From UHGV virus genome UHGV-1363143: a stretch of DNA of 64,000 nucleotides; one strand, 5' to 3'. Below, piece after piece: positions 1,418-56,600 of the stretch. Origin of the DNA: a virus. Numbering within the stretch: position 1 is the stretch's first letter; each line of letters begins with the position of its first letter. The notes beneath the pieces were generated by a model. That model was given only the letters and a program-made list of their open reading frames with translations. It made no database searches and was not told the origin of the DNA. The translations under genes were made by a program, and so were the position numbers.

Positions 1418-3276
1418 ATTACATACTCCCTTCTATATTATATTATTTATTGTACTATATAACATAACTTATATTATCATATATACTAAACCTCATATTG
1501 CATTACATACTATGCCATATAATAAAACCTATATTATATTACCTTATGCAATAGCTAATCTATTAACAATTGTAATTCCAAACATACTTAATAATGTAAG
1601 TATTAATGCAATATATAACACCTTATCACCTCGCTTATTAATCACACTACATACTCTATCATATAGTGCAATAGCAATCTATTATCTTATGTATTATCTA
1701 ACAGAAGTTATAATATAATATACTATCTATTATAAAATCTATTAGATTTAGTATTAACATTAGTAATGCCAACACTTAAGAGGGTAAGTTTTCTTATATA
1801 TGCATGTGTAAATAACGAGAAAACCCTAAGTAATTAAACGTGGAAACACATTCAAAATACTTAGGGCTTAACGTATATTAATATAAGGAGGTTATATATG
1901 ATTGTATCTAGCCTTAAGCCAGTTTACATAATACTTTACGTTAACTGAAACTAGATTTCTGTGAAACGACAGTTACTTTAAAAACTACTGAAAAACCGTC
2001 CGCGGGTGAGCGTGGGGTAGGTAGTCTGGGAAACGTTTAGTGCTTTTTGTGCTAGTACGCCAAAACGTTATTGGTTAATTGCACGTTTTTTCCGATGAAT
2101 TAACCTAGTAAAGTAATGCCATTTTAAGCTTACTCCTAACGATCGCTTCACTTAAAGCATTACTTTAAAAAATATAGTTTTTACACATAGACTATTATAA
2201 TTTATGTTAGCCTATGTACTATATTTTAGAATGCATTATAGATTAGCCTATATAATAGACTGCATAATGCATAAGCAACGCTATTAGTAATAGCTTATAT
2301 ATTATAATACAGTATACAAGAGTGATCCTGTAATAATATATATGCTAATCCCTGATAGGGAAGGGGAGTGGTCCTAAGATAGAACCAACTCCTATATAAG
2401 CCTGCTTTTATATCATGATTGTAAGGTCGCTCGCATACGCTCGCTCCCACATGATAGAGCAGGTACATTATATAGTACAGGTTATATTACGATATAGGTC
2501 ATAACATAAGCTCTACTATATAATAGATTAGACATTATAATAGAAAGCCTATTATACTTGTCCTTATATAAGCTAGCTTTCTTTTCACATACGTTCATCG
2601 AATAGCATACGCTTTATTGCTCGCTGTCGCTCGCACGTTAATATGACACTCGCACGCTAGTAGTCCTATATTATTTATTATTGGCACTCGTACCTGTTAT
2701 AGAATATATAGGTATCTATTGGCACTCGTACGCAATCTTCAGTACTTTATGTATCACACCCTATTTCACCTGTACTTACTTATATAAAAAGAAGTTTGAA
2801 GTCATATAAGTACAGGTTGATAAAATGTGATACATTTAACCTAGATAAGCTATTAACAAAACTGTCATATAGCAACTATATGGAACTGGAACATATTACG
2901 AATGTGAAGAAGAGGGTAGAGTATCTGAATCGTGTTAATGCCTAAACTCGTAATCAGGTGTTCCTTCCTGTACGTGGCAAAGCTCATCTCTTGACTCTTC
3001 GTAATAGAATAGTAGTCGCTTATTACAATTTCATTAATAGCAAATCTAGGATGTACCAAAGTAAAAAATGTTTACCTCTATATGATGCCTAGAATACATA
3101 TAGTATGTAAGCACTACTTATTTGTAATCATATTTCTCTAACTGTTCCACAGTGCATGTCTAGAATAGCCAGTACTAAGAAAGATAGTATAATTAAAAAT
3201 AAGATTCCTGTTTCGACCTCCTATAAGGTCATCATCAGCTGGGCTGTTACTCCCAGGACAGGGGAGGAGAGTAGAG
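1418..3276. other. non-coding island 1 (about 1.86 kb, no ORF of 60 aa or more with phage-like composition)
   Basis: AT-rich part rich in TATA-like runs (1418-1750). GC-rich part carries repeated motifs: GTCGCTCGCA at 2427 and 2629; GCACTCG(C/T)A(C/T)G at 2647, 2684 and 2722; nested GC hairpin at 3208-3262. Confidence 0.6.
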
Positions 3277-5274: not shown

Positions 5275-5899
5275 CTGAAGCTACTTGTTGTTGTACTCCA
5301 GCTTTCATAGCTTTCATTTCTCTAAATGCTGTTAATAACTTAGTGTACATACTAGCATTAATAGATACTCTATCAGCTTGAATAGGTGTATTACTGTTAT
5401 TCTTCTTACATGCATTAATATTCTTAAATACTAATCTGCAATATAAGTTTTGGATAAGTGGTAATGCCTCTCTCCATAATGACAGTTCATAGTCTGAGTA
5501 ATAAGTTGTCTCAGTACTGTCATCAGCAAGATAGAACTTGATTCTACCACTTTCTAATTCCTGTAATAACTCTCCAGGAACATAAGCAATAAGCATGTCA
5601 TTTCTGCCCTCTAGCATAGATATAAGAGTAAGCTCCCTTATAAGCATTGCTAGTGCATTAACTCTAACATTCTCAACTTCTACGGCTCTACCTAAGTTAG
5701 ATACCTTTTGAGTTTGTCCTGCTGTTATAAGAGAAGCAACCTTATTAGCGTCAATAGTCTTCTCATATACTGGTGGACATACTTCACAATTTTCTAAAGT
5801 TGTGATTCTTTTATCAGCTAAAGTACCTTGTACACTCATATCAAATGTAGCTCCCATAGCTTGACCAAAAGTTGTTGAATTAATAAAAACGTTTAACAT
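5258..5899 (-). CDS. hypothetical protein
   Basis: 213-aa ORF, first gene downstream (on - strand) of non-coding island 2. Confidence 0.5.
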   Translation of the reverse strand: MLNVFINSTTFGQAMGATFDMSVQGTLADKRITTLENCEVCPPVYEKTIDANKVASLITAGQTQKVSNLGRAVEVENVRVNALAMLIRELTLISMLEGRNDMLIAYVPGELLQELESGRIKFYLADDSTETTYYSDYELSLWREALPLIQNLYCRLVFKNINACKKNNSNTPIQADRVSINASMYTKLLTAFREMKAMKAGVQQQVASGGPAF

Positions 5900-5995
5900 A
5901 TGTATTCTCCTTTTCTGTACCGACTCTTTTCCGTCCGACGTACTGTTGCACTTTCAGGTGGGCAACTCACCAAAATTTTGAGCATGTAGCCCTAT

Positions 5996-6516
5996 TCAAA
6001 AAGACACTAACCATACTAGATATCCTGTCTTCTTGAATAGATATACATATAGTGGCACTCGCACGCACTAGATAAGTACTGGCTTGCCACAGATAATGGG
6101 GGTGGGGGAGCCAACAATCAAGAGAGGTAGAACATTTCAGTTACTATTTCTCAAGACTGTTGTTTAGCTTTTTGAACATGAAACAACTCCGATGGGAGTC
6201 TGAATCATCAAAAAAACACCAACCATACAGATATCCTGTATAGTGGTAGATACATTGTAGATACATTTGCACCTACATAAACATGCTGTATGCACCTACA
6301 TTATAGATACAAATGCAGATACAAAAAATGAGTCCTATTGCCGAAGTGCAACAACCTCGATGGAAGTCTGAATACACAAATGAGCAAAAGAACTCAAAAA
6401 GACACCAACCATACAGCCCTCCGCAGGAGAGATATACTGTTAAGTGTAAGTAAAACTATCATCCCCGAAGGGGGAGACAGAATACAAGAAGACACCAGCC
6501 ATATAAGATATCCTGT
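5996..6516 (+). repeat. four degenerate direct repeats of about 30 nt, AAAAAGACACCAACCATACAGATATCCTGT-like
   Basis: Copies at 5996-6027, 6210-6239, 6396-6416 and 6486-6516. Two copies are preceded by CAAC(C/T)(C/T)CGATGG(A/G)AGTCTGAAT(A/C) (6184-6207 and 6353-6376). Confidence 0.6.
6462..6475. promoter_or_regulatory. GC hairpin CCCC-GAA-GGGGG (3-nt loop)
   Basis: Perfect 4-5 bp G:C stem with GAA loop in an otherwise AT-rich genome; second copy at 6613-6627. Confidence 0.4.
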
Positions 6517-6612
6517 TGTATCTTGCACTCGTATGTATACTTTCATATCCTCGCACGCAAAAAAACTTTACTCTCCATCTGTTGAAAGAAGCAGGTCTCG
6601 ACAACAAACGGT

Positions 6613-6627
6613 ACCCCGAAGGGGGGT
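6613..6627. promoter_or_regulatory. GC hairpin (A)CCCC-GAA-GGGGG(T) (3-nt loop)
   Basis: Same architecture as the hairpin at 6462. Confidence 0.4.
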
Positions 6628-6694
6628 GGAGAGAGTAGGGGAGGGGACTTTTGTAGAACTAATGTAGTGGTCATGTCATATATTCTCCTTTCTA

Positions 6695-7453
6695 TTAGGC
6701 TATTAATCTTTGTAAAGATACTAATTCAATTGCTTTTGTTATAGTTACATATTCTTTACTAGAATGTATTTCATTATCATTACTTGATTCTAAAAGGCAC
6801 ATCTTACAGTTATTAAGAATGTTATATAGGTCTTCAGGAGTGCCTGTACTTTCATCAACCAAATGCATAACATCATCTAGATCATTACATTGTTTTAAAA
6901 CATTGCCCACTCTATCTATTAGTGGAGCAGTAGTCTTAGCATCTATTGCAGCAAGTAAAACTTTTAATGAAGTATAACCAGCTTCTCTTAATCTTGCTTT
7001 GATTCTATTAGTATCTATCTTTTGAGTAATAGAACCTTTAAAGCCAGCAACATTTACAGCAGCGGCTTGTTGGTATTTAGTAGGATCCCAAGTAAAAGCA
7101 ATACCATCTATAGATCCTCTAATGTATCCATTTTGGAAGCAGTTCATCCATACACCATTGCTTTCTGGTATGGAAATATAATTTACTGTTCTTTGCTTAG
7201 TCTTGATAGGCAAGTTAATATTGTCCATCTCAAGTCTTTTTAAGATATAAAGTCTTCCATATTTAGCAGCCTTAATTCCATCTGCACCATTTTTAACTTC
7301 AACCTTAGGTAGTTCATGATCAGTAAAGTCCCATATGAATCTAGTCTTATTTAATACTCCATACATTTTATTGCCTTCAATTTTAATAGCTACTTCTCTT
7401 TCAAATCCATTTAATTTAACAACCTTTTTATTTAATAACATATTCATTTTCAT
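6695..7453 (-). CDS. hypothetical protein
   Basis: 252-aa ORF directly downstream of the GGDEF gene. Confidence 0.5.
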   Translation of the reverse strand: MKMNMLLNKKVVKLNGFEREVAIKIEGNKMYGVLNKTRFIWDFTDHELPKVEVKNGADGIKAAKYGRLYILKRLEMDNINLPIKTKQRTVNYISIPESNGVWMNCFQNGYIRGSIDGIAFTWDPTKYQQAAAVNVAGFKGSITQKIDTNRIKARLREAGYTSLKVLLAAIDAKTTAPLIDRVGNVLKQCNDLDDVMHLVDESTGTPEDLYNILNNCKMCLLESSNDNEIHSSKEYVTITKAIELVSLQRLIA

Positions 7454-7496
7454 CTTCTCCTTTATATTTAAATATTTACAAAAAAATAAAGCCTAA

Positions 7497-7952
7497 TTAT
7501 CTAACTAGACTTTTGTAGAACCTTCTCTTGTTTGTGTACATATTTTTATCAGCCATAGTGATAGCACTAGACATACTAACGCCGTAGCCAACACCATATG
7601 ATATATTAGGTATATCTTTCATTTTCTCTTTGATACTAAATATAGTTTCATTTTCAAATACTATAACAAATTCATCTCCACCGTATCTTACGATGATATC
7701 TTCATCTGAAACAGCTCGTTTTAAATCATTAACTACAGATAGTATTAGTTTGTCACCCATATTGTGACCACGCATATCATTAGTTTTCTTAAGACCGTTT
7801 ATATCAACTAAGACAACCATATAGGTTAACTTATTTATCTCTGATAGAATTTCTCTTCTGTATACACCAGTGAGGCTATCTTTCTTGAGACTTATTACAA
7901 GCTCAACTAATTGATCTTTCGACATTTTCATTAAATATTCTTTAGTGAACAT
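7497..7952 (-). CDS. stand-alone GGDEF-domain protein (putative diguanylate cyclase)
   Basis: DSLTGVYRR, VLVDINGLKKTNDMRGHNMGD and RYGGDEFVIV match the GGDEF start, metal/substrate and active-site motifs. 151 aa, no sensor domain, only a short N-terminal helix. Confidence 0.8.
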   Translation of the reverse strand: MFTKEYLMKMSKDQLVELVISLKKDSLTGVYRREILSEINKLTYMVVLVDINGLKKTNDMRGHNMGDKLILSVVNDLKRAVSDEDIIVRYGGDEFVIVFENETIFSIKEKMKDIPNISYGVGYGVSMSSAITMADKNMYTNKRRFYKSLVR

Positions 7953-7984
7953 AGCAAAACCTCCTAATATTATTTATAATATGA

Positions 7985-8016
7985 TAAAAAAAGAGCACAG
8001 AATAATGCCCTGTGCT
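7985..8016 (-). terminator. rho-independent terminator candidate
   Basis: On - strand: AGCACAG / CTGTGCT 7-bp stem followed by T-run (A-run 7985-7992 on + strand), just past the stop of the 685-aa gene. Confidence 0.5.
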
Positions 8017-8029
8017 ATGGCTTTTAATA

Positions 8030-10087
8030 TTATGCAAATTGAGAGAAATCAAATGAAGAGAAATCAGAAGAACTATATTCATCTGAGAATGCTTCATCTA
8101 ATCCATCAAAAGCAATATGATTTATTTCACCTGAACTAAATGCTTCATCTTCGATCTTATGAGAAGTAGTAGCAACATCAGATTGAGCGAATGGATCATC
8201 TGAATTAGTAAATTCTTTATTAGATACTTTTACAGAAGATTTGAATGGATCATTATTTATATCTTCAAATACATCGCATTCAACTCTTGAATGATTAAGT
8301 GCAACTTCTTCTTTAGTTCCAAAGTCAAGTAGTAATCTCATGCTCTTACCATCAATGCTAGTATTTCTGATTTTATTTACAGTTAATCCAGCTATTACTG
8401 ATTCAAAAGTAGAACTATTACATAAGTATTGACATACAGGAATTTCAAACTTAACTGATGGATCGTTTAAGCTTGGGATAGTACAAACTATTGCATTATA
8501 AACATGCTTAGTTTTACCTTCATTATTCTTATAACTGTAGAATGGAACTAATTGAATCTTTTCTGCTTTATCAAATACACCTTGAGTAGTTAGTGTGTTG
8601 AAGCTAGCAGTTCTAACATAGTCCTTAGTAACAGCAAAATGTAATGAATCTATAACAGAAGTTTCATATACACTTATAGCTATTGTCTTTGGTTCAACAG
8701 CTTCTATTCTTGGAATTTCTATTGGCTTAACAACAGAAAGAACATCGTCAACCATTTGTACAGTTAATTCACCAGTGTAGTTTGAATCAACATATACATT
8801 ATCAACTTCTTGAGCATTACCATTAACAAATGTTAACACTTGTCCTTCTTCTAATTCTGCTATATCTCCTAAAACTCTATAACCACATACATTTATTTCT
8901 GCATGTTCTGCTACAATATAAGCAGCAAATAATTCAGGAGCAACAGTTAAGAATAATTGATTAGTTGATTCATCATCAATAACCCATGCTTGTTTTTCTC
9001 TCTTGATGTTAGATATCATGAACATTAATCTACCAGCAACAGCCATATCTAAATCTTTAGTGTAGTATCTAGCTAAGTTGCTTAATTCGTTTATCTTTTC
9101 ATCATACATTGCATTAACTTCATCTATTCTCTTAGAGCAAGCATATGGAGAGATAGCATTAATATTAAGAGCTTTATTAGCTTTATCAATTTCTTCACTC
9201 TTCCAAGCAGTTAATTTGCTATATGGTTTTCTTATAGCTTCGTACATGTCAGCAGCAAATGAATTGAATTCACTTCCCATAGCGAAAGAAGATCTAACTT
9301 TATCGCTAAGCTTTACGTTGTTATAACTGTTCAATACATCATTGCTAACGAATTCAACGAATTGATCTGCAACAGTATCTTGAACAACAGACATTTTATC
9401 TTTGAAAGCAACCTTAACAACTTCATCATTCTTATTTCTAAATTCAACAGCTTCACCAACTGCAGCTTCCTTAGGAGCAACATACTTACTAGTTCTATCA
9501 ATAGAGAAACCTTGGAAGTCTTTGAATGATCTGAAGTTATGATCTAATCCAACAGTAGAGTTAGCCTTCATTATTTCATTATGGAATTTAGCTTCAATTT
9601 CATATAACTTCTTAGCAGCATCAATAGTTAACTCTTGATACATTCTAAATAAGTCATTAATATCAGTAAATATCTTTCTAAGATTCTTAATATCAGTTAA
9701 GTCACAAGATATCATTTCTTGAATGATTACATCTTCTTGCTTAGCAGATACAGTAACATAATCCATGTCAGTATTATCAGCTAATATTTCTTGAACAAAT
9801 AAACCATAGTACTCACCAGCACCAGTATTGAATCCTTGCTTCTTTCCTAATACCTCTTTAAGAGTTCTGAATGCTAATGGTTTAAATTGTTCATCATCTA
9901 ATAACATGATTGCTGAGTAAATATTTGAGCATATAGTTATTTGTCCAACTCCTAAGTTTTCATCTCCTTGAATAGAGTGACCATAATCTTTACCCATTCT
10001 ATTCATGAAGTTCACCTTAGTATTTTCCATTTCAACCTTCTTGTTTAATCCTGCTAATGTATTGTTAAATCCTGTAGTTTTTATCAT
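8030..10087 (-). CDS. large hypothetical protein with acidic/aromatic C-terminal tail
   Basis: 685-aa ORF ending ...FDGLDEAFSDEYSSSDFSSFDFSQFA; no family recognised. Confidence 0.55.
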   Translation of the reverse strand: MIKTTGFNNTLAGLNKKVEMENTKVNFMNRMGKDYGHSIQGDENLGVGQITICSNIYSAIMLLDDEQFKPLAFRTLKEVLGKKQGFNTGAGEYYGLFVQEILADNTDMDYVTVSAKQEDVIIQEMISCDLTDIKNLRKIFTDINDLFRMYQELTIDAAKKLYEIEAKFHNEIMKANSTVGLDHNFRSFKDFQGFSIDRTSKYVAPKEAAVGEAVEFRNKNDEVVKVAFKDKMSVVQDTVADQFVEFVSNDVLNSYNNVKLSDKVRSSFAMGSEFNSFAADMYEAIRKPYSKLTAWKSEEIDKANKALNINAISPYACSKRIDEVNAMYDEKINELSNLARYYTKDLDMAVAGRLMFMISNIKREKQAWVIDDESTNQLFLTVAPELFAAYIVAEHAEINVCGYRVLGDIAELEEGQVLTFVNGNAQEVDNVYVDSNYTGELTVQMVDDVLSVVKPIEIPRIEAVEPKTIAISVYETSVIDSLHFAVTKDYVRTASFNTLTTQGVFDKAEKIQLVPFYSYKNNEGKTKHVYNAIVCTIPSLNDPSVKFEIPVCQYLCNSSTFESVIAGLTVNKIRNTSIDGKSMRLLLDFGTKEEVALNHSRVECDVFEDINNDPFKSSVKVSNKEFTNSDDPFAQSDVATTSHKIEDEAFSSGEINHIAFDGLDEAFSDEYSSSDFSSFDFSQFA

Positions 10088-10193: not shown

Positions 10194-10655
10194 CTAAACT
10201 TCATAACATTCAATAAAGTTGATACAATCTAAAGCTCTTATTGAATGAAAGCTTATTTGATGTGTAGGATATTTGAATTTCATTAATTCAAAGAACTTTT
10301 GCTTATTCATTTGTCCATGAATATATGCTTCAATATAATCATATATAGTATCATCAGCCATAGGACCGATAACTACATCATATCCATGTGTTCCTCCATT
10401 ACGACAGCTGACTACAAAGTCTAGCCATTCATCAGAATAATCTTCAAATGTTTTTACATTTAAAGTATCAATATTCTTAAGTTCATAAACATTGACTACG
10501 GAAGTATTTAATCTTCCAGCCCATTTTTCTGCTTGTTCTTGTATCTTAGTACAATAGAAGCCCCATGAGAAATCTTTGGTAAATCTATGCTTACGTATCT
10601 CTGGAAATTCTATTTTCATATAACTGCCATGATATATTATCTCAGATTTGTTCAT
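10194..10655 (-). CDS. DUF3990-like protein with H-G-S motif
   Basis: N-terminal IYHGSY ... DFSWGFYCT ... QAEKWA resembles DUF3990 proteins as remembered (not a database result). The HGS motif is reminiscent of H-Y-E ADP-ribosyltransferase folds. Confidence 0.4.
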   Translation of the reverse strand: MNKSEIIYHGSYMKIEFPEIRKHRFTKDFSWGFYCTKIQEQAEKWAGRLNTSVVNVYELKNIDTLNVKTFEDYSDEWLDFVVSCRNGGTHGYDVVIGPMADDTIYDYIEAYIHGQMNKQKFFELMKFKYPTHQISFHSIRALDCINFIECYEV

Positions 10656-13812: not shown

Positions 13813-14262
13813 CTATAATTTATAATGTTTTACTATACCATTGTATCTCTTAACAGCTTCCCTCTTGTTAAGATGTAATGTATTAACTACATCAACAAAT
13901 ACTTCAGCTGCTTCATTAGGAGTTATTCCATACTTAGCTATTAAAGCATCACATGCATAGATATCTGCTTCTATTTCAAGACTTATAACACGACCATTTT
14001 TTTCTTCATCAAAATGACCACATTCATAGTGTCCTATTTCATGTAATAGTACAAACATTTTTTGCATACGAGTTAACTTGTTAAACTTAGAGCTTACAAC
14101 AATTATTCTAGTTAGTCCTTTAAGACCAACCTTGTAACCTGTAGCTGCTACCATTCTAAAATTAGGCACAGTGTATATTTCAACACCTCTAAAAATTCCT
14201 TTCTTAGTGTATTCATATTTAGTAGGTATCAAACTACCATCCATTAAATAAACATTCTTCAT
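13813..14262 (-). CDS. ImmA/IrrE-like HExxH zinc metallopeptidase
   Basis: LLHEIGHYECGH motif, about 150 aa as in COG2856-type ImmA proteases; no cognate HTH repressor seen next to it. Confidence 0.6.
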   Translation of the reverse strand: MKNVYLMDGSLIPTKYEYTKKGIFRGVEIYTVPNFRMVAATGYKVGLKGLTRIIVVSSKFNKLTRMQKMFVLLHEIGHYECGHFDEEKNGRVISLEIEADIYACDALIAKYGITPNEAAEVFVDVVNTLHLNKREAVKRYNGIVKHYKL

Positions 14263-43573: not shown

Positions 43574-46500
43574 ATGAGCAGATTAAATGACGAAGATCAA
43601 CACTCCTTTGGTAAGGCTACGGCTGTTCTGACTGGTATGGTTGGGGCAGCCGCTTTTCATAGATTAGGGGGAGCTAAGGCCATTGCGAAGGGAGTGCCTA
43701 AATTAACTAGGTTTGCTAGTAAGCTAATGGACGATGTAGCTGAAATGAAACTTAAGGATTATGATGCTGAAGGAATCAGTAGACTTTATAAGAGTCATAT
43801 AGCTGATGATAATAGTACTTGGAAGTCCTTAAAAAATCTATCAGATGAAAAGATAAAGCTTGGAGTTACTGGACAAAAACCTGTTGCAGTTATATTAAAT
43901 ATGTTGGAGATACAAGCCAATAGCAGAGATACTATGAGAAAGGTATTTAATGCAAATTATGCTGATGAAGTAGTAGGTAAACTTGATAAGAAATATAAAA
44001 TCATAGATGATGAATTTAAGGACAAACTTGATGATCTTACAAGACATGTAATCGAAAAGGATGATTTAACATTATTCACAGATAAAGATGGTGTAGTAAC
44101 AAGAAACAGTGATTTAATAAAAGATTTTATTGATCCAGATGAATTTCATTTAGGTGAACAAGAAGATGAATTCTTTAAGGATTTAATAGGAGCAATAGAA
44201 AATAAAGAAAATGCTTTTAAAGAATATGTAGAGAACCATAAAGATGAGGATGGAACTTTAGATCTTGTAAACAACATAAAAGAACAATTAACAGGTAAAA
44301 GTTTTGCAGAGGCTTTTGGAGTCTCTGGAGATGAATCTATAATAGACAATACTATTAAACAAAGTAGAGGACTTACTTTTAGAGATTATGTAGATAACCT
44401 AGATAAATTCGATGACCAAATTATGAATCTTGGTGGCGATAATTATATTAGTTTAAAAGATGAGATTAAAAAGTTTGTTGAAGAGAATGAAGAAATCAAA
44501 GATGTACTTATTGACGCTAAAAACCTTAAGATAGATAAATCAGGAAATATAATTGATTTTCAAGAAGTAGATGAATTAAGAAAAGGTTTTTTAGAAAAAC
44601 TTGCTGGAACACTTCCAGGTAAACTAGCAAAGGTCACAGACTTTCTTAGTGTTGAAGAAGCTGGAGCAATTAACTTTTTCCAAAAAGGTAAAGCTAATCC
44701 TCTTGCTAACAATGATGGTACAAATAAAGGCAAGGATAATATAATTCAAATTTTAAATAAGTATTATAAGATAGATAAAAATAATAATTTATCTCATATG
44801 AGTGAATTAGATGATATGTACTCAAGATCTAACAAACACGGTACTGTTCCTCGTATGTTGGGTAAAATGTTTGGTACTGAATCAGAATATGAGGCTATTA
44901 ATAAAATAGCTAAAAAACTTGATATAGGAACAACTACAGAAAGAACAATATTAGATGATTTATCTAAAGAGGGCGGAATAGTAGGTAAATATGCAAGAAG
45001 TGTAACTGGAGTAGAAAGATATAACGTTATTGATAAAATGCTAGATGCTAGTCTTGCAGAAAGTGATGCTATAGCATATAGAAAAAATCTTAAGAATGTA
45101 AATCAAATCTTCTCTCATATTGCTAAAGCTCCTAACATGAAAACACTAGCTAAGATGGAGAATGTAGTTACTAATGATATGAGTAAAGATATACTTCAAG
45201 CGTTAATGACTAATGACCAGGAAGAGATGGTTTCTACACTATCCAAGTATACTAAACAGCTTAGGAATAAGGATTTGAAATCTCTAATAAAAACTGGTGC
45301 CTCTAATAGAGAGAATGCAGCTCGAATGCTATCAATAAAGAGCGATAGAATTACGGATGCTAAAAATATTATGAAATACAAAGACATGATTAAAAGGGAA
45401 GCTTTTAAAGAAGTTTTAATATCTGAGACAATTGATGAAGTTTCAGGAAGTGTTAATCATAATAGAATGTTAATTAAGTTAAGACAAGCTGGAATATCAG
45501 GAAGTTCATATGAGAATGCCAAGAATTTAGGACACTGGGCAACTCTTCAAATGAAAGGAAAACTTTTTAATAATGATGCTAAAGAGAAAGGACTTGAAGC
45601 GATCAAGGAAGCTAACAATGATGTTCTTGAACTTTTAACATCTATTAGAAAAAAAGATACTATTCCAGTAAATGCTGAGTACGTAAAAGACTTTAGAAGT
45701 ACTGTAGACAAAATAAGGGATAATTACAGCGAACTTACTACTAGAACAACAGAAAGAAATATCAAAGCTAAGAAGATTAGAGCACAAGCTACAAATGATA
45801 TGATGATTATGCGTAAAGCATATACCCCTAGTAGTTATGTAAAAGACATGATTAAAGATATGAATGATATAACAAAAATGAAAGCCAATACTAAAAAGTT
45901 TGGTATGCAATTTATTGCTGGCAAAGATAATCCTGAATTTGTTACATCATACACTATGATACCATATTTCTTTAGTCAAAGACTTACAGAACCATTTGCA
46001 AATTACGGCCTATCATTCTCAAGCAAGAATATGAAGAGTACTCCTGATATGTGGAAGGCGATAATGATGAAAAGAGTTCTTCCAGCAGCAGCAGGTATCA
46101 CCGCATTTAATTACTTAAATTATGAAGCTAAGAACTTAACTGGTACTAGCATAACAGGTGCAATGGCTCAGGGGATAGCAAATGTAGATCTTGGCCTAAG
46201 AAAGATAGCTGACATTACTGGAGCTGGAAAATTACTTGAAGCAGAAAGAAGATTAAATCCTATTTCTCAATACTGGCTAGGAGAAGATTATCAAAATTCT
46301 GCTGAAAGAAAAGATTATTACGAAAATGGATATGATGAAGTCCGTAAAGGAAGATGGTGGGCATTCGGTTCTGCTTCTGAATTTAGAGGTAGTAAGATTG
46401 CATATTATCAACCTAATTTCGTTAAGAGAGCTAATAGTGATTGGAAAGATATCGGAATATACGGAAGTTCAAAAGAGAAATGGAAACATTCTTGGATACC

Positions 46501-49500
46501 AACTCCTAGACATCCATTTGCTCCAATAAGAAGAGCATTAGATCCATACTGGCTTGAAAGAAAGAACTATAATGATAGACCTTATCTTGAAACTGCGCCT
46601 TTATTCTCTACTGGTACTCCTTGGGGAGCTGTATTGAATCCTACAGTAGGTCAAATAGTAAAACCTATTAGAAAGATGCATAGGGATGAAACTAGAAGAG
46701 GCTTAGTTGATCCTCGTACTTTAATCCGGGAAAGAAATGAAAGATTAAAAGCTAAAGCTCAGGATAAGCAACATGGCAACCTTATTCAAATATCAAAAGA
46801 TGGAATAAGTAATGTATCGTATACCCCTTCTGCACTTGCGGATCCTGACAAAGCAATGATAACTTTAAGAGCTGGAAATGGAAAAATACAAAGTGTAGAT
46901 TATAATGGTCTTGATTATACAGAAGGTATTGGCCACATATCAGAAGGTGGAATACCAGTAGATAACCCTGCGGGAAACAATGGGGCATTTTATGTTGGAA
47001 GAAATGCGAGTGCTGAACCTAAAACGGGGTTGATAGAGGCTTTTGAAACAACAGCATTAGGCTCATTTATAAGCAATGGTGTAAGAAAGTTTATAAGTCC
47101 TGTAGAGACTCTAAGGGTAACTAATGAAGGAATTAAGGGTAAAGCAGCAGCTACAGACGGAACTGTTATACAACAAGCTAACCTTGCTAAAATGCCATTC
47201 AGACAAGCGACTCAAAGAATGACTACAAAACAAGAAGAGGCTGATTTATTATTAACTACTTCTAAGCACGATTTTATAAATGACACACTATTCTCTGCAA
47301 AACAATTATCAGGTATATATGGATTCCTTGGAGGGCTTATATACTCAGATGATAAAAAGAAGGTAAGACCAGAAAGTGCTGAGAAAATGTCTAGCTTTAA
47401 ACGTAGTTTCTGGGATGCAAATGTCGGAGGTCTTGGTGGCGGTATAATGGAAATCTCTAGAAGATTTTTCCCACATGATGACCATGCATGGACAGATATT
47501 AATCCAATTAGAAATACTATGCCTGAATGGATGCCAACTAGATTCCAAACAGGGGATCCATATACTAAAGTTCCGAAGGGAGAAATGAGACTTCCAGGAA
47601 AGGGATATGAATCTATTCATAAATTAAGATCTGATGAATACGGAAGATATGGTGCTCTTGATAGAATGAGGATATTAGGAGATATAGCTCCGTGGTCAGA
47701 AGAATACAAACTGTGGAGAGATATAGCAAGTAAATCAATTACTGACGAAAAAGGTAAGAGAGAAATACAAGACATAAAGAAGAGAGTTGAAAAACAAAGT
47801 AGATCACATGAATTTTATAATTATAAGTTCCTAGGAAATCCTACAGAGATAAATACTGAAACTATTGAATCAGTAGAAGGAACTAAAATTACCACTACAT
47901 CAGGTAAACAATATAGCATGGCTGGAATTAAGCTTGGTAAAAATACAGATATAAACTCACACTTAGCCGCTGGAATGAAAGTTCAAGTAGAACACTTGAA
48001 GAAGGATAAGGGCATTGATGGTTCTATATCAGCAGCTGTATATGTTAATGGAGAAAATATAAATCAAAAGCTTGTTAATTCAGGTGAAGCAAAAAGTGAT
48101 ACTAGTACAGCTATGGGAGCAAAAGCTTTAACTGGTCAATTTAGTCAATTCTATGGTGCAGCAATGGAAGCTATTGCTCATGCTCCTATTCCATTTGTTC
48201 ATAACAAAGTGATGAAGATAGATACACCATTAGAATCTTATAAAAACGAAAGAGTTTATGGTACTCCATATAGTACATGGGATCATCCTATTAAAGGATT
48301 TATTATGCCTTCATTCCAAAAGGACTGGGCAAGAGGCCCTGTAGGACAAGGTATTGCTCTTGGTGCTTGGGTATTAGCTGAGCAAACTTGGAAGAATTCA
48401 AGTAAAACTTCTGAAGCATTAAAAAGAATAGGAATTAATTTATCAGAAACTGGAGTTAATAGATTAGCAAGTACTATATTTAATGTAGCTAATCCTGGTG
48501 CATTTGCTGGTTCAATGATGGCGGCAATACCTACTGGACTAATGGGTAACAGTGAAGGTATTAAGGGATTATTTAGTTCCGCAATATTTGGAGCAGGAGT
48601 TAAACCAGGTGTTGGTAGAAATGGTGCTAGATTAGGTGCAACAGCTATGATAGCTGGATATGGATTAACAAGATCTGATAAGCCTATTGAATCGACAGCT
48701 ATATTCACTGTAGCTGGTATGGCATTATCTAAACAGTTAAATCATAAAGCATTTAATACTAAACAAGGTGCTATAGCTGGTGCTACTACTGGATTATTAA
48801 TATCTGCAATTAGGAATCCTAGATTTAATAAAGATAAAATGTTTGGAAAATACACACCTGAATCAACTAAAAAGAGATGGGATATAGATGAGTATTATGA
48901 CAGACTTGAATATATAAAATATAAGGGCCTATACGAAAAAGCTGCAAGAAAAGCACGTATATGGGAAGGCACAAATATTAAAAAGATTATCAATGCAAAT
49001 GAATACCAAAGAGGAATAAATAAAAAGAAAATTGAAAAATTAAACAATAGGCTAGACAAAGTAAGTAATAGTAAACTAGAGGACAACAGAAAGGCTGAGA
49101 TAATCGAAAAGATTAATCAGCAAAAATATCGACTTAGCACATCTGAACAGACATTTAGGGCTGGGAAATATACTAAAGCCGCTATTGCATACAAACAAGC
49201 GGCGGAAAGTACTATCTATGGCTTGAAAGAAGATGCTACTTCACAACAAGTAATGAGAGCAATTCCAAAAGGAGATAAAGATTTCTTCATGGAATTTGCT
49301 AAAGAAAAGAATAAGAAGAAGCAAGATGAAATACTAAAATATGTATCACCTTATCAAAGAAGAGCATTACAGATAGCTTGGGGACGAAAGAAGATTGATA
49401 AAGTAGAAGATAATGATGATTACTTTAAAGGTCACTTTATGCCAGGAGTGTTCTGGGCAGGATGGAGTCCACAAGTTGATATGGAACATGTTAAGATGAA

Positions 49501-49810
49501 GACTATCGAAAATGAAGGAATGCTTTTAAGTGATTTTGGAATATATGAATCTCAAAGCAATGAGCCATCGGCAATAATGGCTCCAACAGTTGGAAGATTT
49601 GATAGTGCAAATACTAGCGGTCTTGGATTACAAGCTAGACTTCAAGGTGCATTAAATGGAGCAGGATTAATGGGAGTTAAAGTTAGTGTAAGTCCAACAT
49701 CGGCTAACGGGATAGAAGTAATGGCGAACATAACAAACGCTGCAAAAATTACAGAATATAAAGTTAGGGAAGGCATAAATAAAGTAGTCGGAACAAGATT
49801 GTTTTATTAA
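43574..49810 (+). CDS. tape-measure-like giant protein (2078 aa)
   Basis: Position after the chaperone-position genes; long K/E-rich helical regions; Gly/Ala-rich hydrophobic segments near aa 1590-1730 typical of tape-measure TM regions. Confidence 0.5.
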   Translation: MSRLNDEDQHSFGKATAVLTGMVGAAAFHRLGGAKAIAKGVPKLTRFASKLMDDVAEMKLKDYDAEGISRLYKSHIADDNSTWKSLKNLSDEKIKLGVTGQKPVAVILNMLEIQANSRDTMRKVFNANYADEVVGKLDKKYKIIDDEFKDKLDDLTRHVIEKDDLTLFTDKDGVVTRNSDLIKDFIDPDEFHLGEQEDEFFKDLIGAIENKENAFKEYVENHKDEDGTLDLVNNIKEQLTGKSFAEAFGVSGDESIIDNTIKQSRGLTFRDYVDNLDKFDDQIMNLGGDNYISLKDEIKKFVEENEEIKDVLIDAKNLKIDKSGNIIDFQEVDELRKGFLEKLAGTLPGKLAKVTDFLSVEEAGAINFFQKGKANPLANNDGTNKGKDNIIQILNKYYKIDKNNNLSHMSELDDMYSRSNKHGTVPRMLGKMFGTESEYEAINKIAKKLDIGTTTERTILDDLSKEGGIVGKYARSVTGVERYNVIDKMLDASLAESDAIAYRKNLKNVNQIFSHIAKAPNMKTLAKMENVVTNDMSKDILQALMTNDQEEMVSTLSKYTKQLRNKDLKSLIKTGASNRENAARMLSIKSDRITDAKNIMKYKDMIKREAFKEVLISETIDEVSGSVNHNRMLIKLRQAGISGSSYENAKNLGHWATLQMKGKLFNNDAKEKGLEAIKEANNDVLELLTSIRKKDTIPVNAEYVKDFRSTVDKIRDNYSELTTRTTERNIKAKKIRAQATNDMMIMRKAYTPSSYVKDMIKDMNDITKMKANTKKFGMQFIAGKDNPEFVTSYTMIPYFFSQRLTEPFANYGLSFSSKNMKSTPDMWKAIMMKRVLPAAAGITAFNYLNYEAKNLTGTSITGAMAQGIANVDLGLRKIADITGAGKLLEAERRLNPISQYWLGEDYQNSAERKDYYENGYDEVRKGRWWAFGSASEFRGSKIAYYQPNFVKRANSDWKDIGIYGSSKEKWKHSWIPTPRHPFAPIRRALDPYWLERKNYNDRPYLETAPLFSTGTPWGAVLNPTVGQIVKPIRKMHRDETRRGLVDPRTLIRERNERLKAKAQDKQHGNLIQISKDGISNVSYTPSALADPDKAMITLRAGNGKIQSVDYNGLDYTEGIGHISEGGIPVDNPAGNNGAFYVGRNASAEPKTGLIEAFETTALGSFISNGVRKFISPVETLRVTNEGIKGKAAATDGTVIQQANLAKMPFRQATQRMTTKQEEADLLLTTSKHDFINDTLFSAKQLSGIYGFLGGLIYSDDKKKVRPESAEKMSSFKRSFWDANVGGLGGGIMEISRRFFPHDDHAWTDINPIRNTMPEWMPTRFQTGDPYTKVPKGEMRLPGKGYESIHKLRSDEYGRYGALDRMRILGDIAPWSEEYKLWRDIASKSITDEKGKREIQDIKKRVEKQSRSHEFYNYKFLGNPTEINTETIESVEGTKITTTSGKQYSMAGIKLGKNTDINSHLAAGMKVQVEHLKKDKGIDGSISAAVYVNGENINQKLVNSGEAKSDTSTAMGAKALTGQFSQFYGAAMEAIAHAPIPFVHNKVMKIDTPLESYKNERVYGTPYSTWDHPIKGFIMPSFQKDWARGPVGQGIALGAWVLAEQTWKNSSKTSEALKRIGINLSETGVNRLASTIFNVANPGAFAGSMMAAIPTGLMGNSEGIKGLFSSAIFGAGVKPGVGRNGARLGATAMIAGYGLTRSDKPIESTAIFTVAGMALSKQLNHKAFNTKQGAIAGATTGLLISAIRNPRFNKDKMFGKYTPESTKKRWDIDEYYDRLEYIKYKGLYEKAARKARIWEGTNIKKIINANEYQRGINKKKIEKLNNRLDKVSNSKLEDNRKAEIIEKINQQKYRLSTSEQTFRAGKYTKAAIAYKQAAESTIYGLKEDATSQQVMRAIPKGDKDFFMEFAKEKNKKKQDEILKYVSPYQRRALQIAWGRKKIDKVEDNDDYFKGHFMPGVFWAGWSPQVDMEHVKMKTIENEGMLLSDFGIYESQSNEPSAIMAPTVGRFDSANTSGLGLQARLQGALNGAGLMGVKVSVSPTSANGIEVMANITNAAKITEYKVREGINKVVGTRLFY

Positions 49811-50647: not shown

Positions 50648-53600
50648 GTGAGATCTCGTATTAATGTATTTGAGCACAATAAAAAAATTGAAAATAGAAT
50701 AAAATCAAGAGAAGCCATAGTCAAAGAAGAGTTCGGTGGCAAAAGCGGAGAGGCTTTAGTTGAAGAAGTTAATAAGAGAATGGCTATGGCATATATAATG
50801 GACAATGATTTTAAAAAGAAATATATAGAGTTCGGAAAAGACTCTGTTATATTAGGATCAAAATATGTAGATGACGCTGTTAATAAATATGCTCCTATAA
50901 ATGGCATTAAACAAACTTATGATGATATAAGACCTATGTTTAATTTTGTTAACAATATAAGCAATCATCTTAAATCAAAACAGACAGGTAATGAGCTTAT
51001 ACTTAATGCTATAGAATTAAACAATGGAATGAACTACAGTAAGATTTCCACTAAAGCAAATATGTCAGTAACTTCATTAAATAAGGCATATGATAATTTT
51101 AAAAAATCTGAAGAGTTCTTTGTATTTGACACTGAAACATTATCAGGTATGGGCAAAACAGGATATAACGAACTAGATAGATTACAAGAAATAGCATTCC
51201 GTAAGTTTAAAAAGGTTGATGGAAAGCTAGTAGAAGATGAAGCTTCAAGGGTGGAAACACTTATAGGAATAACTCAAAAGCAATACGATGAATATATGGA
51301 TATCTTCGTAAATAACTTTAATGAAAATGGATGGCAAGGAAATCAAAAGTACGAAGTAATCGCAGGAAGATTTGCAAAGCTTGGACATAAAGATACTGTT
51401 ATTAAAAATGCTGGTAAAGGATTAGCTATAACAGAAAGTTTTGCTAGTGATGCTAGTGAGAACTTAATGGATGTAAGCAATATTAAACGAGGGCTTGAAA
51501 GAGCTCTAGAAATAGGAAAAAGACAAGATGCTGAAAGACTATCTAATGGCTTAATGGTATGGGAAGATCAGTTATTAAGAAGTGTAAAAATATTTAATGA
51601 AAACTTTGTAGCTGGATTTAATAGTACAAACTTTGACTTTGAAAAGATGAATCAATCTATTGGTACTGTATGGAACAGTATGAATTCAACTCAAAAAGCA
51701 GAGTATAGCAAAATATTAAATCTTAAAAACGGAACAGTTCCTGTAATCAATCCTATTGAAGGAAATTATTTAGACTTTAGAGATGTTGTTAGAACTGCTG
51801 CTGAATCAATAGGTAAAACAGGCATCTATGGTAATGATAATGAAAAACTTAAAACAATTAAAGGTATAGGGAAGACATTATTACAACAAGAATCTCTTGG
51901 TGAAGTATTTGCTAAAGATGCAATGTTCACAGCAGCTCATACAGCAGGTGCCGACGTTACAACGTTAGCTCACCTTATGGGAGGCAAGGAATTAAACGGA
52001 GCTTCTTTATTTGATGAATTAATGACTACAATAAATAAGAATGCTTCAGCCTTAACAGGAAAAGTAGATTACAATTCTGTATTAATGGCCACTCAAGGAG
52101 AGTTTTTCAATGACTTTACTAGAAAGGGTGCTCTTAACTTTACAACAGATAGATCTAGTGGTGCGATAAGGACGTTCAATGGAATGTCACTAGATGCAAA
52201 TGGAGATGTTAGAGATTTAGGTAAATTCGGTAAAGCGACAGGATTAAAGAAAAATGTAGCTTATAAGATTGGATTTATGGGCGAAATGGATATGTCTGAA
52301 GACTGGATTAAAAAGATGTCAGGTATACACCAAGACTACGCACAAGGAAAGTTGTGGGTTGCGAAATTTAATCCATTAATAGATAAAACAATAGCTGGAG
52401 ATAATTCTATTTTAGAAGATCCTACTACATATTTCTTTACTTCTAAAGAAGCAATGGAGGGATTTGTATCAAGCCATTTTGCACATGTAGGTAATATAGG
52501 CACTGATGGTAAAATAGAAGATTTAGCTGATCCTGCAGCTAGAGCTGAGGTTCAAAAGCTATTTGGAGTTCATACAATCAAAGATGGAAAAGTTAGTGAA
52601 GCCGCAACACAAACAGCTAGTGAATTAGTATCCAATGGAACTATACAAGCAATGAATGATCCAGCTGCTAGAATGATAAGAGAAAATGAATACACAAAAG
52701 CTATAAAGTTTCAGAGAATGCAAGATTACCTAAAAAAGAATGGTGCTACAACTATTGATGAACAAAAGAAGATGTTATCTTTAGCAACTGCAGAGAATGT
52801 TGCTGGAGGAAAAACATTAAAGATTAAACATGATGTTTTATCAATATTAGGATTCCAAGATAAAGAGGTTAATAAGCAAGTCCTATATTCAAGTACTTTA
52901 AATAATACTATTAATAGTTATGGATATATGGCTTCAAAAAGAAATGTTATAGATTCTCTTGTTGAAGCTGTTAAGGAATATGGAAATATAGGCTCAGAAC
53001 AGCAACAGTTTATATATGATTCATTAATGAGAGGGTTAAGAGAAGATGCAGCTAATGCTATAGCTTCAGGAGATTTAGAGAAAGAAGCACTAATCAATGG
53101 TTCAAGTGAACTAAAGGTATATGCAAAGGACCTAGATTATTTTGAATTTGATATGCCAGAGGGCTACTTTAAAAACACTAATGCAAAAGCTATGCCTGGA
53201 GAAATAGATAATGTACTAAGGGTTAATCTTAAGTCAGAAAAAGAATATTCTCTAGTCAATGATTTATTAAGAAGACGTAGAGGAAATGATGATAGGCTTA
53301 AATCTCCTAATGCAAGACAAGCATATGGAATGCAAGAACTTAGAAATTTTGCTAATACAGTAAACTCATTAGAAGAGTATAAAGGAATATTTGATGATAT
53401 CTTATATGGCAAGCCAGTTAATGAACTTAAGAATTTAGCTAATTTAAAGAAGTATGAAAAGAGTTTATTAAAAGATGAATTGTATTCTTCATTTGATAAT
53501 GTAGTTAATAATATAGTTAACAATAATGAAGAAGTTATTGAATCAAGAGCTTCTTTAGAACAACTTAGAAAAAGAAGGATAGAACTTCAAAACTTTATAA

Positions 53601-56600
53601 ATGAAAATAACGGAAAAAGAAATTCATTAAGACCTGAACTTGAAGTTCTAAGTAATGAATTTAAAAATACTATATTACCAGATGATCAGTGGCAATCATT
53701 ACTTCCAGATGATAAGAGAATAATTAAAGAAAAGCAAAAAGACATAATGCTTAAACAGAAGGAATTACTTTCAACATTTGATAATAGTGATTTATTTACT
53801 GAACTTAGTGAAATTGAAAGTAACATGGAAGAACAATACAACCATCTATTTAATGTATTGGATATCTCAAGATCAAATGCAAAAACTTCTTTAAAAGAAA
53901 TGTTTTCAACAAAAATTAATAATAAAAATAAAGAGATTGATGAAGTATTCAATAAGTTAAATGAAGTTATCTCTACTGTTCCAATTGAAGCTGATATAAG
54001 TGTTGATGCTATGTCAGAAAAGCTTATTCAAGCAATGAAAAACTTTAGAGAAAATAATCCTTCTTCAGGTTTTTCAAAAGACAGAGTAATACAAAATGTC
54101 TTAGATAGTGATGAATTACTATCAACACTTGATGATGATTTTGTAAAGAAGTCTATTGAAAATACTAAGAGCAATTTGCCTAATCTAAAGCTTATTGATG
54201 TAAACAATAAAAATGAAGTTAAGTCATATGCAGAAGAGATCGTAGATAGCATATTAATGCCTACAGTAAAGGACTCGGATGGAAATTTACTTAAGAATAT
54301 AGATGATATAGCAACATTCGCTCAAAAAACATATGGCTACAATGAAACTACAACTAAGCTATTTAAATATAATCTTCAAATGCAAAGAGAAGAACATGTC
54401 AAAGGTATCTCTGATCTTGTAACAGCAGTTGGAAGAAAAAATGGATTTATAACTTATGATAAGTCAACCTCTGAATTGGGAATGAGAATAGGTGGCGAAA
54501 CATATAACCTATGGGGTATGCCTAAGACTAGAATTGAAAATGGTACTTTATTTATTGCGAATGGACAAGGCAATTTTGCTTCAGGATTTAAACTGGATGT
54601 TCAAGATGCAATAGATGGTAAGAGACTTAATCGAGGCAAGGTTGCAATAAAATCTGATTTAGCAGATTCATACAAGGAATTAAGATCCCTTAATTATAGG
54701 TTAGATAGAGCTGCTGCTAGAGGAGATGATTTAGGTAAAACTGTTATTGGTGCAGTTAGCAACGTAGCAAGTAAAGTAAGAGAATTATCTGCTTTAGGTT
54801 CAATGACAACTAAAGATTCATATGCATGGCAAGGAATGGATTTAAGCGAAGGTATTTTGTCAATGCCATACATGTTGGATGAGATTAAATCATATGACGG
54901 TTGGCAAGACGACGATTTTATAAAAATCTTAGAAAGAAATAAGAATAGGATACTTAATGGGAATATAACTTCAGAAGTTCAAGAAGCATATGCTAAAAAT
55001 AAACAAGATGTAGTAAAAATGCTTTTAGGTATTGGTGCAGGAAATGAAAATAAGCAAAGAACTGTTCAAGAGTTTATTGCAGGTAATATAAGCAATTATA
55101 CTAAGGATGGGAAACTAGCTGTAGGTAGAGCAATGGTAGGAGAATATTCTCCAATGGCTATGACAGAATGGGACAATCCATCACGTCCACCAATAAGTTC
55201 TGCTGATGAAATTTTGTTCAACAAAAAGAAATTAGATGATATAATCAATGATCCTACAAAAGGATTGAAAGGTAGAATAGAAACTGGCTCTAGAATAGTT
55301 TCTACTAGACAAGGTGCTGGAAGAAAATTTGATGGAATAGGCGAAGTGGCAACTGGAGTTACATTTAAAAATGCTAATATTTCAGAAAAGAAATTCAAGG
55401 AAATTATAAGTGATAAGTTCGAAGAAGAACTAGAAAAAGTAAATCCTAACTCTAGTAGAGCGGAATGGCTAGAATCACTTAGAAGACAAATGAGCGGACT
55501 TAACTTGACTGAACAAGGTAAGCTTATTGATGGTAGAGTTGCAGATGCTTTATTATCTGAAACAGAAACGCAAAGAATTAATACATTTAAGAATTTTAGT
55601 AGAGACATGAAAAACAATACTAAAATTATGAACGATAGAATAAAAAAGGCAATGCCTACTATAGAGATTGCTCAGTCAGGAGAAATTGTATTCAAGCTTG
55701 GTAAGAAGGATTACGTAAAACGTGGCGACGCATTATTTGCTATAGATGGATATGGAGATGTTCTTGATACTATAGGAGTAAAAGAAGACGCTGGATTATT
55801 TGGGTTTGGATATAATTCTAAGGGAAGTAATCTTGCAGTTGGAGAAGATGAAATATCTAAACTTCTTAACAAGAATAAGAATAGAATACTAAATGCAGAT
55901 GGAACAATAAATCAAGATAAGGCTATGCGATTATTAAATGAATCTTTTGATAGTGGATTCTATGTAAAGAATGCGTTTGTAAAAGGATACAATAAGGGTA
56001 CAATCGAGTATGCTGAAAAAGGTATGTACGATGCATTGGTATCTGGAGCAGGTACTTTAGATAACAGAGTTGATAAGTTACTTGAAGCTGTCGGTATGAA
56101 AGAAGCTAGTGGTAAGGTTTTAAGTGAAGATTTTATAGATTTAATAGCTGAAAAATATTCTGGATTGACCGCAAAACAAAGAAGTGATTTAGGCTTTGCA
56201 GGTGGTTGGAACCAAGTTAAAAATGCTATTAATAAAGAAAAGTTTGCTAAAACTGACTTCATTAGAGAGATAGATGCATTTAAAGATATAGTTGCATTTA
56301 CTAATGACAATGTAATTAAACATGGTAATGCAGGTATCGCAATGAAAGGACTTATTAATAACATTACTGAAAAGTATATGATTGATGATAAGTTATCATT
56401 TGAAGAAGCTTCCAAGAAAACTGTTGATATACTAAACAAGGAAATTATTATAGATAAAAGTACTGGTGAAAAAGGCAAAATATTTAATGGAGTAGATATT
56501 TCTTTTAAAGACGGTAAGATTCATATTGGTGAAATAAAAGATACACTGAATGCAACTATAGACAAATACGCAGTACAAGCTTTAACTGATGAACTAGGGT

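Follow-up and report, generated by a model that had tools for sequence, protein, structure and literature searches.

The 151-aa protein encoded by this phage is a GGDEF domain pared to its ferredoxin-like palm core. Its catalytic residues are intact and the arginine of its inhibitory site (I-site) has been lost. For these two reasons we regard a constitutive diguanylate cyclase, acting alone and free of feedback inhibition, as the most reasonable reading, and we lean, with some reserve, towards an enzyme that would raise c-di-GMP in the host. The gene lies in a stretch of viral DNA of 64 kb, the whole of which we call the window. A previous sequence-only reading had placed the open reading frame at 7497-7952, and its coordinates and its length of 151 aa proved exact. 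The frame is on the minus strand and opens with an ATG codon, preceded by a strong ribosome-binding site of its own. The signals around the gene and the motifs of its product are given in Table 1.

Table 1. Location in the window of the GGDEF gene, its expression signals and the motifs of its product.
Feature	Positions	Strand	Basis
CDS of the compact GGDEF protein (P0001), 151 aa	7497..7952	-	ORF listing; Pfam, NCBIfam and PDB matches; AlphaFold2 model
AGGAGG ribosome-binding site, 7 nt before the ATG of the GGDEF gene	7960..7965	-	Read from the minus-strand sequence
Terminator-like hairpin (9 pairs) with a T-run, separating the GGDEF gene from the 685-aa gene upstream	7985..8016	-	Consensus scan
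Residues 1-24, N-terminal extension ending at D25-S-L-T-G; candidate minimal dimerising stalk	7881..7952	-	AlphaFold2 model; pattern in the clade
Residues 50-67, D50-I-N-G-L-K55-K-T-N58-D59-M-R-G-H63-N-M-G-D67; metal Asp, Lys, guanine-recognising Asn and Asp	7752..7805	-	
Residues 82-85, S-D-E-D; position of the RxxD inhibitory site, Arg replaced by Ser	7698..7709	-	Alignment to RSSD in DosC; family alignments A1 and A3
Residues 89-95, R-Y-G-G-D-E-F; active-site hairpin with conserved Arg, metal-binding Asp93 and general base Glu94	7668..7688	-	
Residues 135-142, D-K-N-M-Y-T-N-K; ADxxMYxxK motif with phosphate-binding Lys142	7527..7550	-	

The scores against Pfam GGDEF (PF00990; 68.5 bits for a cutoff of 23.8, E = 7.6e-19) and TIGR00254 (64.1 bits for a cutoff of 37.4), together with the E values to the solved cyclases DosC, DgcR, PleD and WspR (down to 5e-11), put the identity of the domain far beyond chance. 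In total, 48 distinct PDB sequences were matched, nearly all of them named as diguanylate cyclases or GGDEF-domain proteins and with DosC as the best (E = 5e-11), and the phage family phrog_5594 was matched at E = 5e-29. No second domain was detected in the protein, and the earlier view that it consists of a GGDEF domain without a sensor domain is borne out by the profile searches. The AlphaFold2 model, built from 75 homologues, has a pLDDT of 94.5. It contains helices at residues 4-8, 12-23 and 33-38, a strand at 44-51, helices at 54-61 and 63-80, the GGDEF hairpin (86-89/94-99), a helix at 104-111, a strand at 117-124 and a long terminal helix at 127-150, the palm core having the order beta-alpha-alpha-beta-beta-alpha-beta-alpha. 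All 50 matches listed by Foldseek against the PDB are GGDEF or diguanylate cyclase domains, e.g., TM1788 at an rmsd of 2.0 and SiaD, PleD, DgcR and DgcB at query TM-scores of 0.75-0.78 (0.78 for SiaD). The protein is thus a trimmed variant of the GGDEF domain and not a different fold.

The sequence-only reading also spoke of a complete catalytic core. This stands for the residues, which are all intact and invariant, but not for the architecture, which is shortened (the Pfam match spans only profile positions 30-94 of 161). D50, K55, N58, R89, G91-G92-D93-E94-F95, K142 and R33 are invariant across relatives with 30-50% identity (alignments A1, A2 and A3), and in A1 the same is true of D59, H63, G66, D135 and Y139. 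The GGDEF motif falls between the predicted strands 86-89 and 94-99, and N58 and D67 are found at the canonical spacing from D50 (+8 and +17). R33 is the conserved Arg after DxLTG; it was placed by motif alignment and is invariant in A1 and A3. By motif register with PleD, D50 corresponds to D327, K55 to K332, N58 to N335, H63 to H340, D67 to D344, R89 to R366, G91-F95 to the GGEEF at 368-372, and K142 to K442. In a census of 78 viral GGDEF ORFs, the position of D67 is occupied by Asp in 75. The third and fourth residues of the GGDEF motif have metal-binding and general-base roles, and a cross-dimer Arg after DxLTG (R537 in IsPadC) is present in 94% of cyclases (PMC6456294).

The I-site has followed a different course. 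The four residues equivalent to RxxD, five before GG, are S82-D83-E84-D85, and the Arg is not kept: Ser82 stands in its place. The sequence-only reading was right that this Arg is missing. The relatives P0003-P0010 and the protein of the related contig L012 have mostly R-x-x-D, and Ser occurs only in the window protein and in its 88%-identical relative P0002, so that the loss of the Arg is recent and specific to this lineage. In the census, the I-site Arg is kept in only 23 of the 78 ORFs and the catalytic residues are nearly invariant. Mutation of the I-site Arg of GacA abolished the binding of the dinucleotide and increased the product about 30-fold in vivo (PMC6456294). Given the effect of this mutant, it is reasonable to infer that the 151-aa protein would be free of product-feedback inhibition.

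The trimming of the domain was read from an alignment with E. coli DgcZ and gp150 of Bacillus phage SP-15. Three parts present in these are missing from the protein: some 8 aa of alpha0, a segment of about 17 aa (the extra edge-strand hairpin) that separates alpha3 from the SxG strand, and the C-terminal GRN motif with the final strand, R-R-F-Y146 standing where the GRN motif would follow. K142 is present and Y146 occupies the position of the GRN arginine (K+4); no member of the compact clade to which the protein belongs has the GRN motif. The domain also falls short of the usual length of about 160 aa, and where a full-length domain has a five-stranded sheet, the prediction gives four core strands. 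The paring of the domain to its palm core is probably why the Pfam profile is only partially covered and why a weak, sub-threshold match to PF18182 appears. In PleD structures, the GRN arginine (R446) presumably contacts the phosphates of GTP. The absence of this arginine, of the alpha3-SxG segment and of the last strand means that activity could be reduced or altered.

The N-terminal part is also short. It had been described as a helix of about 30 aa that could mediate dimerisation, and the helical extension was indeed recovered; it counts only 24 aa before D25-x-L-T-G (helices 4-8 and 12-23). Its pattern, SK[DE][EQ]L[IV]x[ML]V..L, is kept in the clade, and the Foldseek matches with the highest query TM-scores include DgcB (6ttr), GCN4-WspR (3i5c) and SiaD (7e6g), which are listed with a coiled-coil or dimerising N-terminal part. 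Isolated GGDEF domains are usually poorly active unless dimerised. Our main doubt is whether the trimmed C-terminus, devoid of the GRN arginine, and a helix of about 12 residues allow good activity.

If they do not, the trimmed domain may have little or no cyclase activity and serve instead to bind GTP or c-di-GMP, or to heterodimerise with the GGDEF proteins of the host and so poison or activate them. The missing arginine, segment and strand point in this direction, as do the coverage of only profile positions 30-94 of 161 and an N-terminal helix that is very short for self-association. There is also a precedent for interference of this kind, as phages are known to interfere with host cyclases through small proteins that bind YfiN (PMC8085984). 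We consider such a binding role unlikely, because D50, R89, D93, E94 and K142 are invariant over deep divergence, which pure binding would not need, and because the I-site Arg, the residue that binds c-di-GMP, is precisely the one that is absent.

Assuming that the protein is a cyclase, the identity of its product can be approached from the residues that recognise the base. Canonical and Hypr enzymes are distinguished by an Asp versus a Ser or Thr at the Watson-Crick position (S348 in GacA), Hypr enzymes also replace the cross-dimer Arg (Y304 in GacA), whose presence favours guanine, and the change from Ser to Asp is alone sufficient to convert GacA into a pure diguanylate cyclase (PMC6456294). 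The sequence-only reading offered a Hypr-type enzyme as an alternative and proposed, among other checks, to read the specificity residue in an alignment. That residue is Asp67, the canonical state, and the cross-dimer R33 is present. Both are guanine-specific states (PMC6456294), and we rejected membership of the Hypr (cGAMP-making) group. We also rejected membership of mCpol (PF18182), since the match is below the cutoff and no mCpol structure is found among the 50 Foldseek PDB matches listed.

A different product, be it 3',3'-cGAMP, c-di-AMP or a linear or oligomeric nucleotide as in mCpol/Cas10, could in principle act as a decoy or anti-defence signal. The mCpol enzymes of Panoptes make decoy cyclic dinucleotides (PMC12657218), the window protein has their minimal size along with the sub-threshold PF18182 match (E = 0.008), and some other compact GGDEFs on phage or mobile-element DNA have Ser (L016, L020) or Thr (P0021, P0031, P0034, P0047) at the Hypr position. 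For the window protein this seems to us quite improbable: Asp67 and Arg33 favour guanine according to the work on GacA (PMC6456294), the mCpol score (17.0 bits) is under the cutoff of 26.4 and compares with 68.5 bits for GGDEF, and there is no match in PADLOC.

The GGDEF gene is part of the leftward, non-structural gene block. It is encoded 44 nt upstream of a 252-aa gene, and no terminator-like site separates the two; the consensus scan found seven such sites in 5800-8300, against 1.0 expected. Neither the 685-aa protein encoded directly upstream nor the 252-aa protein directly downstream gave a match in Pfam, PHROG or PADLOC. When the ORFs of related loci were compared by BLASTP with those of the window, no gene was found to be conserved with the GGDEF gene outside the closest relatives. 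Beyond it, L012 has structural genes in common with the window, and L008 and L026 each gave a weak match to the endolysin. The flanks differ in L012, L008, L175, L007 and Clo-PEP-1, and the downstream genes are unrelated outside the closest relatives. The phage contig L178, which encodes P0002, has the gene order of the window minus the gene of a DUF3990 protein, and the GGDEF gene is retained while its neighbours change between the related phages L178 and L012. We thus rejected a partner or effector gene, as only the GGDEF gene is common to the related loci (structural and weak endolysin matches aside). A link to a phage RNA polymerase was also rejected: the relative P0006 follows a 1393-aa protein with an RdRP-type Pfam domain (L007), to which the upstream 660-aa and 685-aa proteins of the window show no similarity.

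The rest of the window was searched for the means of responding to c-di-GMP. None of the 39 other window proteins scanned with Pfam has a PilZ, EAL, HD-GYP or MshEN domain, and neither a c-di-GMP riboswitch nor any other Rfam family was found in the window at gathering thresholds. With no receptor, phosphodiesterase or riboswitch in the window, any effect of the dinucleotide would pass through host receptors or through phage genes outside the window. The GGDEF protein and its two immediate neighbours had no match in PADLOC-DB 2.0 at E <= 0.01, and on this ground we rejected the GGDEF protein as a component of a defence system.

These observations also bear on the possibility that the protein generates the signal of a two-part exclusion or defence system carried by the phage, in which a neighbour would be the c-di-GMP-activated effector. 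In favour of this are the uncharacterised 252-aa gene so close downstream, the lack of known domains in most neighbours, and the DUF3990 gene, a candidate defence gene 2.2 kb away. But no neighbour is kept outside the closest relatives, with flanks that differ in L012, L008, L175, L007 and Clo-PEP-1, DUF3990 is absent from L178, and neither PilZ nor another known receptor domain was detected, so that we find this arrangement very improbable.

Several other features of the window deserve mention. The DUF3990 protein (10194-10655, minus strand; 167 bits in Pfam) has a weak match to ART-PolyVal ADP-ribosyltransferases and a strong one (230 bits) to the PADLOC candidate defence component PDC-M10A. 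It stands alone between two large unknown genes, and its absence from the otherwise syntenic L178 gives it the look of an accessory gene that was inserted. A gene-free stretch of 800 bp (5900-6694) separates the 213-aa gene from the 252-aa gene, and its minus strand folds at -172 kcal/mol (z = -6.05 relative to shuffled sequence). The stretch contains hairpins of the GC-rich form CCCC-UUCG-GGGG, and a 23-nt repeat (minus-strand CTGTATGGTTGGTGTCTTTTTGA) occurs in it four times, at least some of the copies at terminator-like sites. Its identity to the equivalent in L178 is 88-91%, a level of conservation close to that of the coding genes on either side, and L178 is without one module of some 210 nt. 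Small phage RNAs in an array are one possible reading of this stretch. Another region free of genes, of about 1.86 kb (1418-3276), is AT-rich, with dense degenerate direct and inverted repeats; the equivalent gap is also uncalled in L001, and the region may be a replication origin or a regulatory region. Neither region has a credible Rfam match, the only ones being chance miRNA-like matches, such as that of the long palindrome at 2278-2361, which occurs on both strands.

The GGDEF gene is under purifying selection. Compared with P0002, its dN/dS is 0.17 (dS 0.31), similar to the values of the genes that flank it (0.13 and 0.09 against L178), and none of the 18 amino-acid substitutions affects a catalytic or substrate residue. 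The close compact clade is small and found only in metagenome and viral contigs. Among 1.84 billion representative proteins, only four clusters were found at E <= 1e-30, with a fifth at 1.1e-30, all of 144-154 aa; below them come, for the most part, ordinary GGDEF proteins with several domains. The clade was not found in the cellular genomes searched (185,579 bacterial and archaeal species, one genome each), where the best matches over the full region have at most 38% identity and are 25-40 aa longer, so that the gene is not a recent capture. That the gene is a captured fragment of a host gene, a passenger without function for the phage, is barely credible: the region is variable, the gene is accessory and its neighbourhood differs between relatives, but its dN/dS is low, the identical protein is found on 12 contigs, and several phage backbones unrelated to one another have retained the distinct compact clade.

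The genomic context of the relatives is diverse. P0005 and P0009 adjoin endolysins, P0006 adjoins a protein with an RdRP-type Pfam domain, and L012, a 248-kb IMG/VR contig, has the terminase (62% identity) and several other proteins in common with the window. P0012, a slightly more distant compact member, is probably bacterial, because it is found among tRNA-synthetase genes. A tblastn search gave GGDEF matches in 146 phage records, including C. perfringens phages, Pseudomonas phages such as AN14, Bordetella LK3, Bacillus SP-15 and Acinetobacter phages. From two peptide patterns alone, 128 IMG/VR loci were confirmed, many of them on contigs above 200 kb.

Some of these GGDEF proteins differ from the window protein in ways that are of interest in their own right. 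Compact proteins on viral or mobile-element contigs have Ser at the Hypr position in L016 (6013-6462) and L020 (1163-1642), and Thr in P0021, P0031, P0034 and P0047 (L009 8001-8459, L010 5162-5620 and L011 3493-3951). Ser or Thr together with GGDEF is the combination reported for natural Hypr enzymes, and these proteins may make cGAMP-type signals from mobile elements. P0047, of the Thr type, is encoded on an integrase-bearing element beside PemK and a 736-757-aa protein that has a weak match to Sigma70_r2 and, in two of the three loci, a weak match to GmrSD_N. About 35 IMG/VR loci encode proteins of 183-184 aa (e.g., L043 5896-6447, and many from sample 3300045988) that have H-S-G-D-E-F instead of R-x-G-G-D-E-F, so that His takes the place of the conserved Arg and Ser that of the first Gly; they also have Lys for the cross-dimer Arg and no RxxD. 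Finally, the GGDEF gene of SP-15 (L173 2453-3004; 183 aa) encodes a full-length domain with the GRN motif and is surrounded by genes for a UTP-glucose-1-phosphate uridylyltransferase, two glycosyltransferases and a CDP-glycerol glycerophosphotransferase. With such sugar- and glycerol-transfer neighbours, c-di-GMP may be connected in that phage with the chemistry of glycans or of DNA modification.

The phage origin asserted by the sequence-only reading is confirmed by the presence, within the same window, of an amidase endolysin, a large terminase, a portal and a major head protein, together with a weak match to a tail sheath. The window has a GC content of about 32%, a GC skew that switches strand at about 14 kb, and no tRNA genes. 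The closest relatives of its terminase are those of Moorella phage MTATph1 (46% identity) and of the Bacillus jumbo phages WH1, Edson and 0305phi8-36, and the catalytic domain of its endolysin resembles those of Bacillus phage endolysins. The 12 contigs with the identical 151-aa protein, several of them named as human gut metagenomes, have the same neighbours where these are shown, and the largest contig recorded with the exact protein has 238 kb. A megablast of window positions 1-25000 against INPHARED returned no near-identical phage. From the kinship of the terminase and endolysin, the gut contigs and the size of the largest of these, the source is a large myovirus, probably a jumbo one, of a gut Bacillota member. 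The host would be a member of the Bacillota of the human gut, and we place it no more finely than that.

Annotation of this phage lineage is very poor. No Pfam match was found for most of the 39 other proteins scanned in the window, and the structural block includes two giant ORFs on the plus strand, at 43574-49810 (2078 aa) and 50648-59530 (2960 aa), without a Pfam match at E <= 0.01. Beside the endolysin, at the divergent junction, is the gene of an ImmA/IrrE-type M78 metallopeptidase (13813-14262, minus strand). Such peptidases are often part of repressor-cleaving switches, and a regulated lifestyle decision is thus possible for this phage.

How might a constitutive cyclase work in such a phage? 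We infer the following course of events, from dimerisation and enzymatic activity through feedback loss and the timing of expression to all of the downstream physiology. Each monomer would bind one GTP, with N58 and D67 reading the guanine, D50 and D93 holding the metal, K55, R89 and K142 holding the phosphates, and E94 acting as general base across the dimer. Two GTP-loaded monomers would pair to make c-di-GMP, probably by way of the short and conserved helix at the N-terminus that continues into DxLTG. We propose this helix as the dimeriser because no other candidate is present; it has the position of the dimerising stalk or coiled coil of WspR, DgcB, SiaD and DgcR, which are among the best structural matches. 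In the absence of both a sensor and the I-site Arg, the enzyme would probably be active whenever expressed and would not be shut off by its product, so that its output would be set by the level of expression alone. Expression from the leftward non-structural block would then raise c-di-GMP in the infected Bacillota cell and could switch the motility, surface structures and matrix of the host.

What the phage would gain is more conjectural. Assigning a physiological purpose to the phage cyclase is speculation. The known outputs of c-di-GMP in Bacillota include motility arrest, surface change with superinfection exclusion, matrix production and interference with sporulation, and no sequence feature favours any one of them. 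The sequence-only reading had suggested a scenario drawn from Clostridia, with flagella, toxin genes and pili under riboswitch control and superinfection exclusion as the gain; this stays conjectural, with a host placed only among the Bacillota and no c-di-GMP riboswitch, PilZ, EAL or HD-GYP in the window. A wider hypothesis, which we put forward tentatively as a possibility and think doubtful as it stands, is that the compact clade is a virus-adapted diguanylate cyclase, reduced to the palm core, made constitutive by a minimal dimerising helix and, in this lineage, free of product inhibition, with which a large lytic phage of gut Bacillota would flood the cell with c-di-GMP during takeover. 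Motility might be stopped, the cell surface altered against the adsorption of further phages, or sporulation blocked.

The closest known counterpart is gp61 of phage Clo-PEP-1 (APQ42006.1, 146 aa, annotated as 'GGDEF domain-containing protein'), with 38% identity over 91% of the query. It is probably also the top viral structure match (146 aa). It is likewise phage-encoded, GGDEF-only and equally compact, with the same deletions, and has homologues in the C. perfringens phages CP3, CPD4, P21 and A2-H1. It differs in being found in siphovirus-sized genomes of about 50 kb, next to a helicase and other replication-type genes, and in having H-P-E-K for RxxD. The YuA-like Pseudomonas phages and the Bordetella phages LK3 and CN1 also encode short stand-alone GGDEF proteins (that of CN1, of 152 aa, is a structural match to the window protein), but their hosts are Gram-negative, LK3 is described as temperate, and the identity is about 29-39% over part of the length. 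In LK3, the presence of the gene is correlated with hyperbiofilm lysogens, a correlation only, which came without a causal test (PMC8471281).

Among cellular enzymes, PleD, WspR, DgcZ, DosC and TM1788 have in common with the window protein the fold, the catalytic, metal-binding and guanine-recognising residues, and the DxLTG lead-in from an N-terminal helix. In contrast to them, it has no sensor or receiver domain, is shorter by about 25-40 aa and has Ser for the I-site Arg. The cyclases of the integrative conjugative elements of V. cholerae are probably larger proteins, and those elements belong to Gram-negative bacteria. They too put genes of c-di-GMP turnover on mobile DNA, where they are thought to alter the behaviour of the host (PMC10333796). 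The mCpol protein OptS of Panoptes is a minimal palm-domain cyclase of similar size that is constitutively active and superposes on PleD (PMC12657218). Little is left of the GGDEF motif in mCpol, whose substrate is ATP and which belongs to host defence, whereas the window protein keeps both GGDEF and the residues that read guanine.

Novelty was overstated in the sequence-only reading, as short GGDEF-only proteins are already annotated in isolated phages of C. perfringens, Bordetella, Pseudomonas and Bacillus and were noted in a review of c-di-GMP evolution (PMC10333796). A search of the searchable literature returned no biochemistry of any phage GGDEF protein. What is new here is modest: the compact architecture, the recent loss of the I-site Arg, the restriction of the close clade to contigs of phages and metagenomes, and the exclusion of the Hypr and mCpol types.

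Neither the idea nor the class of gene is new, but the protein provides a minimal test case, a domain of about 125 aa with no sensor and no I-site Arg, for asking down to what size a cyclase stays active and what benefit a phage draws from the synthesis of c-di-GMP. If the takeover hypothesis were true, it would be the first time that a viral c-di-GMP synthase had been defined biochemically and its benefit to the phage demonstrated. The change between motile and sessile life in bacteria is governed mainly by c-di-GMP, and if phages routinely inject a constitutive cyclase, then infection itself would reprogramme biofilm formation, motility and surface structures in gut communities.
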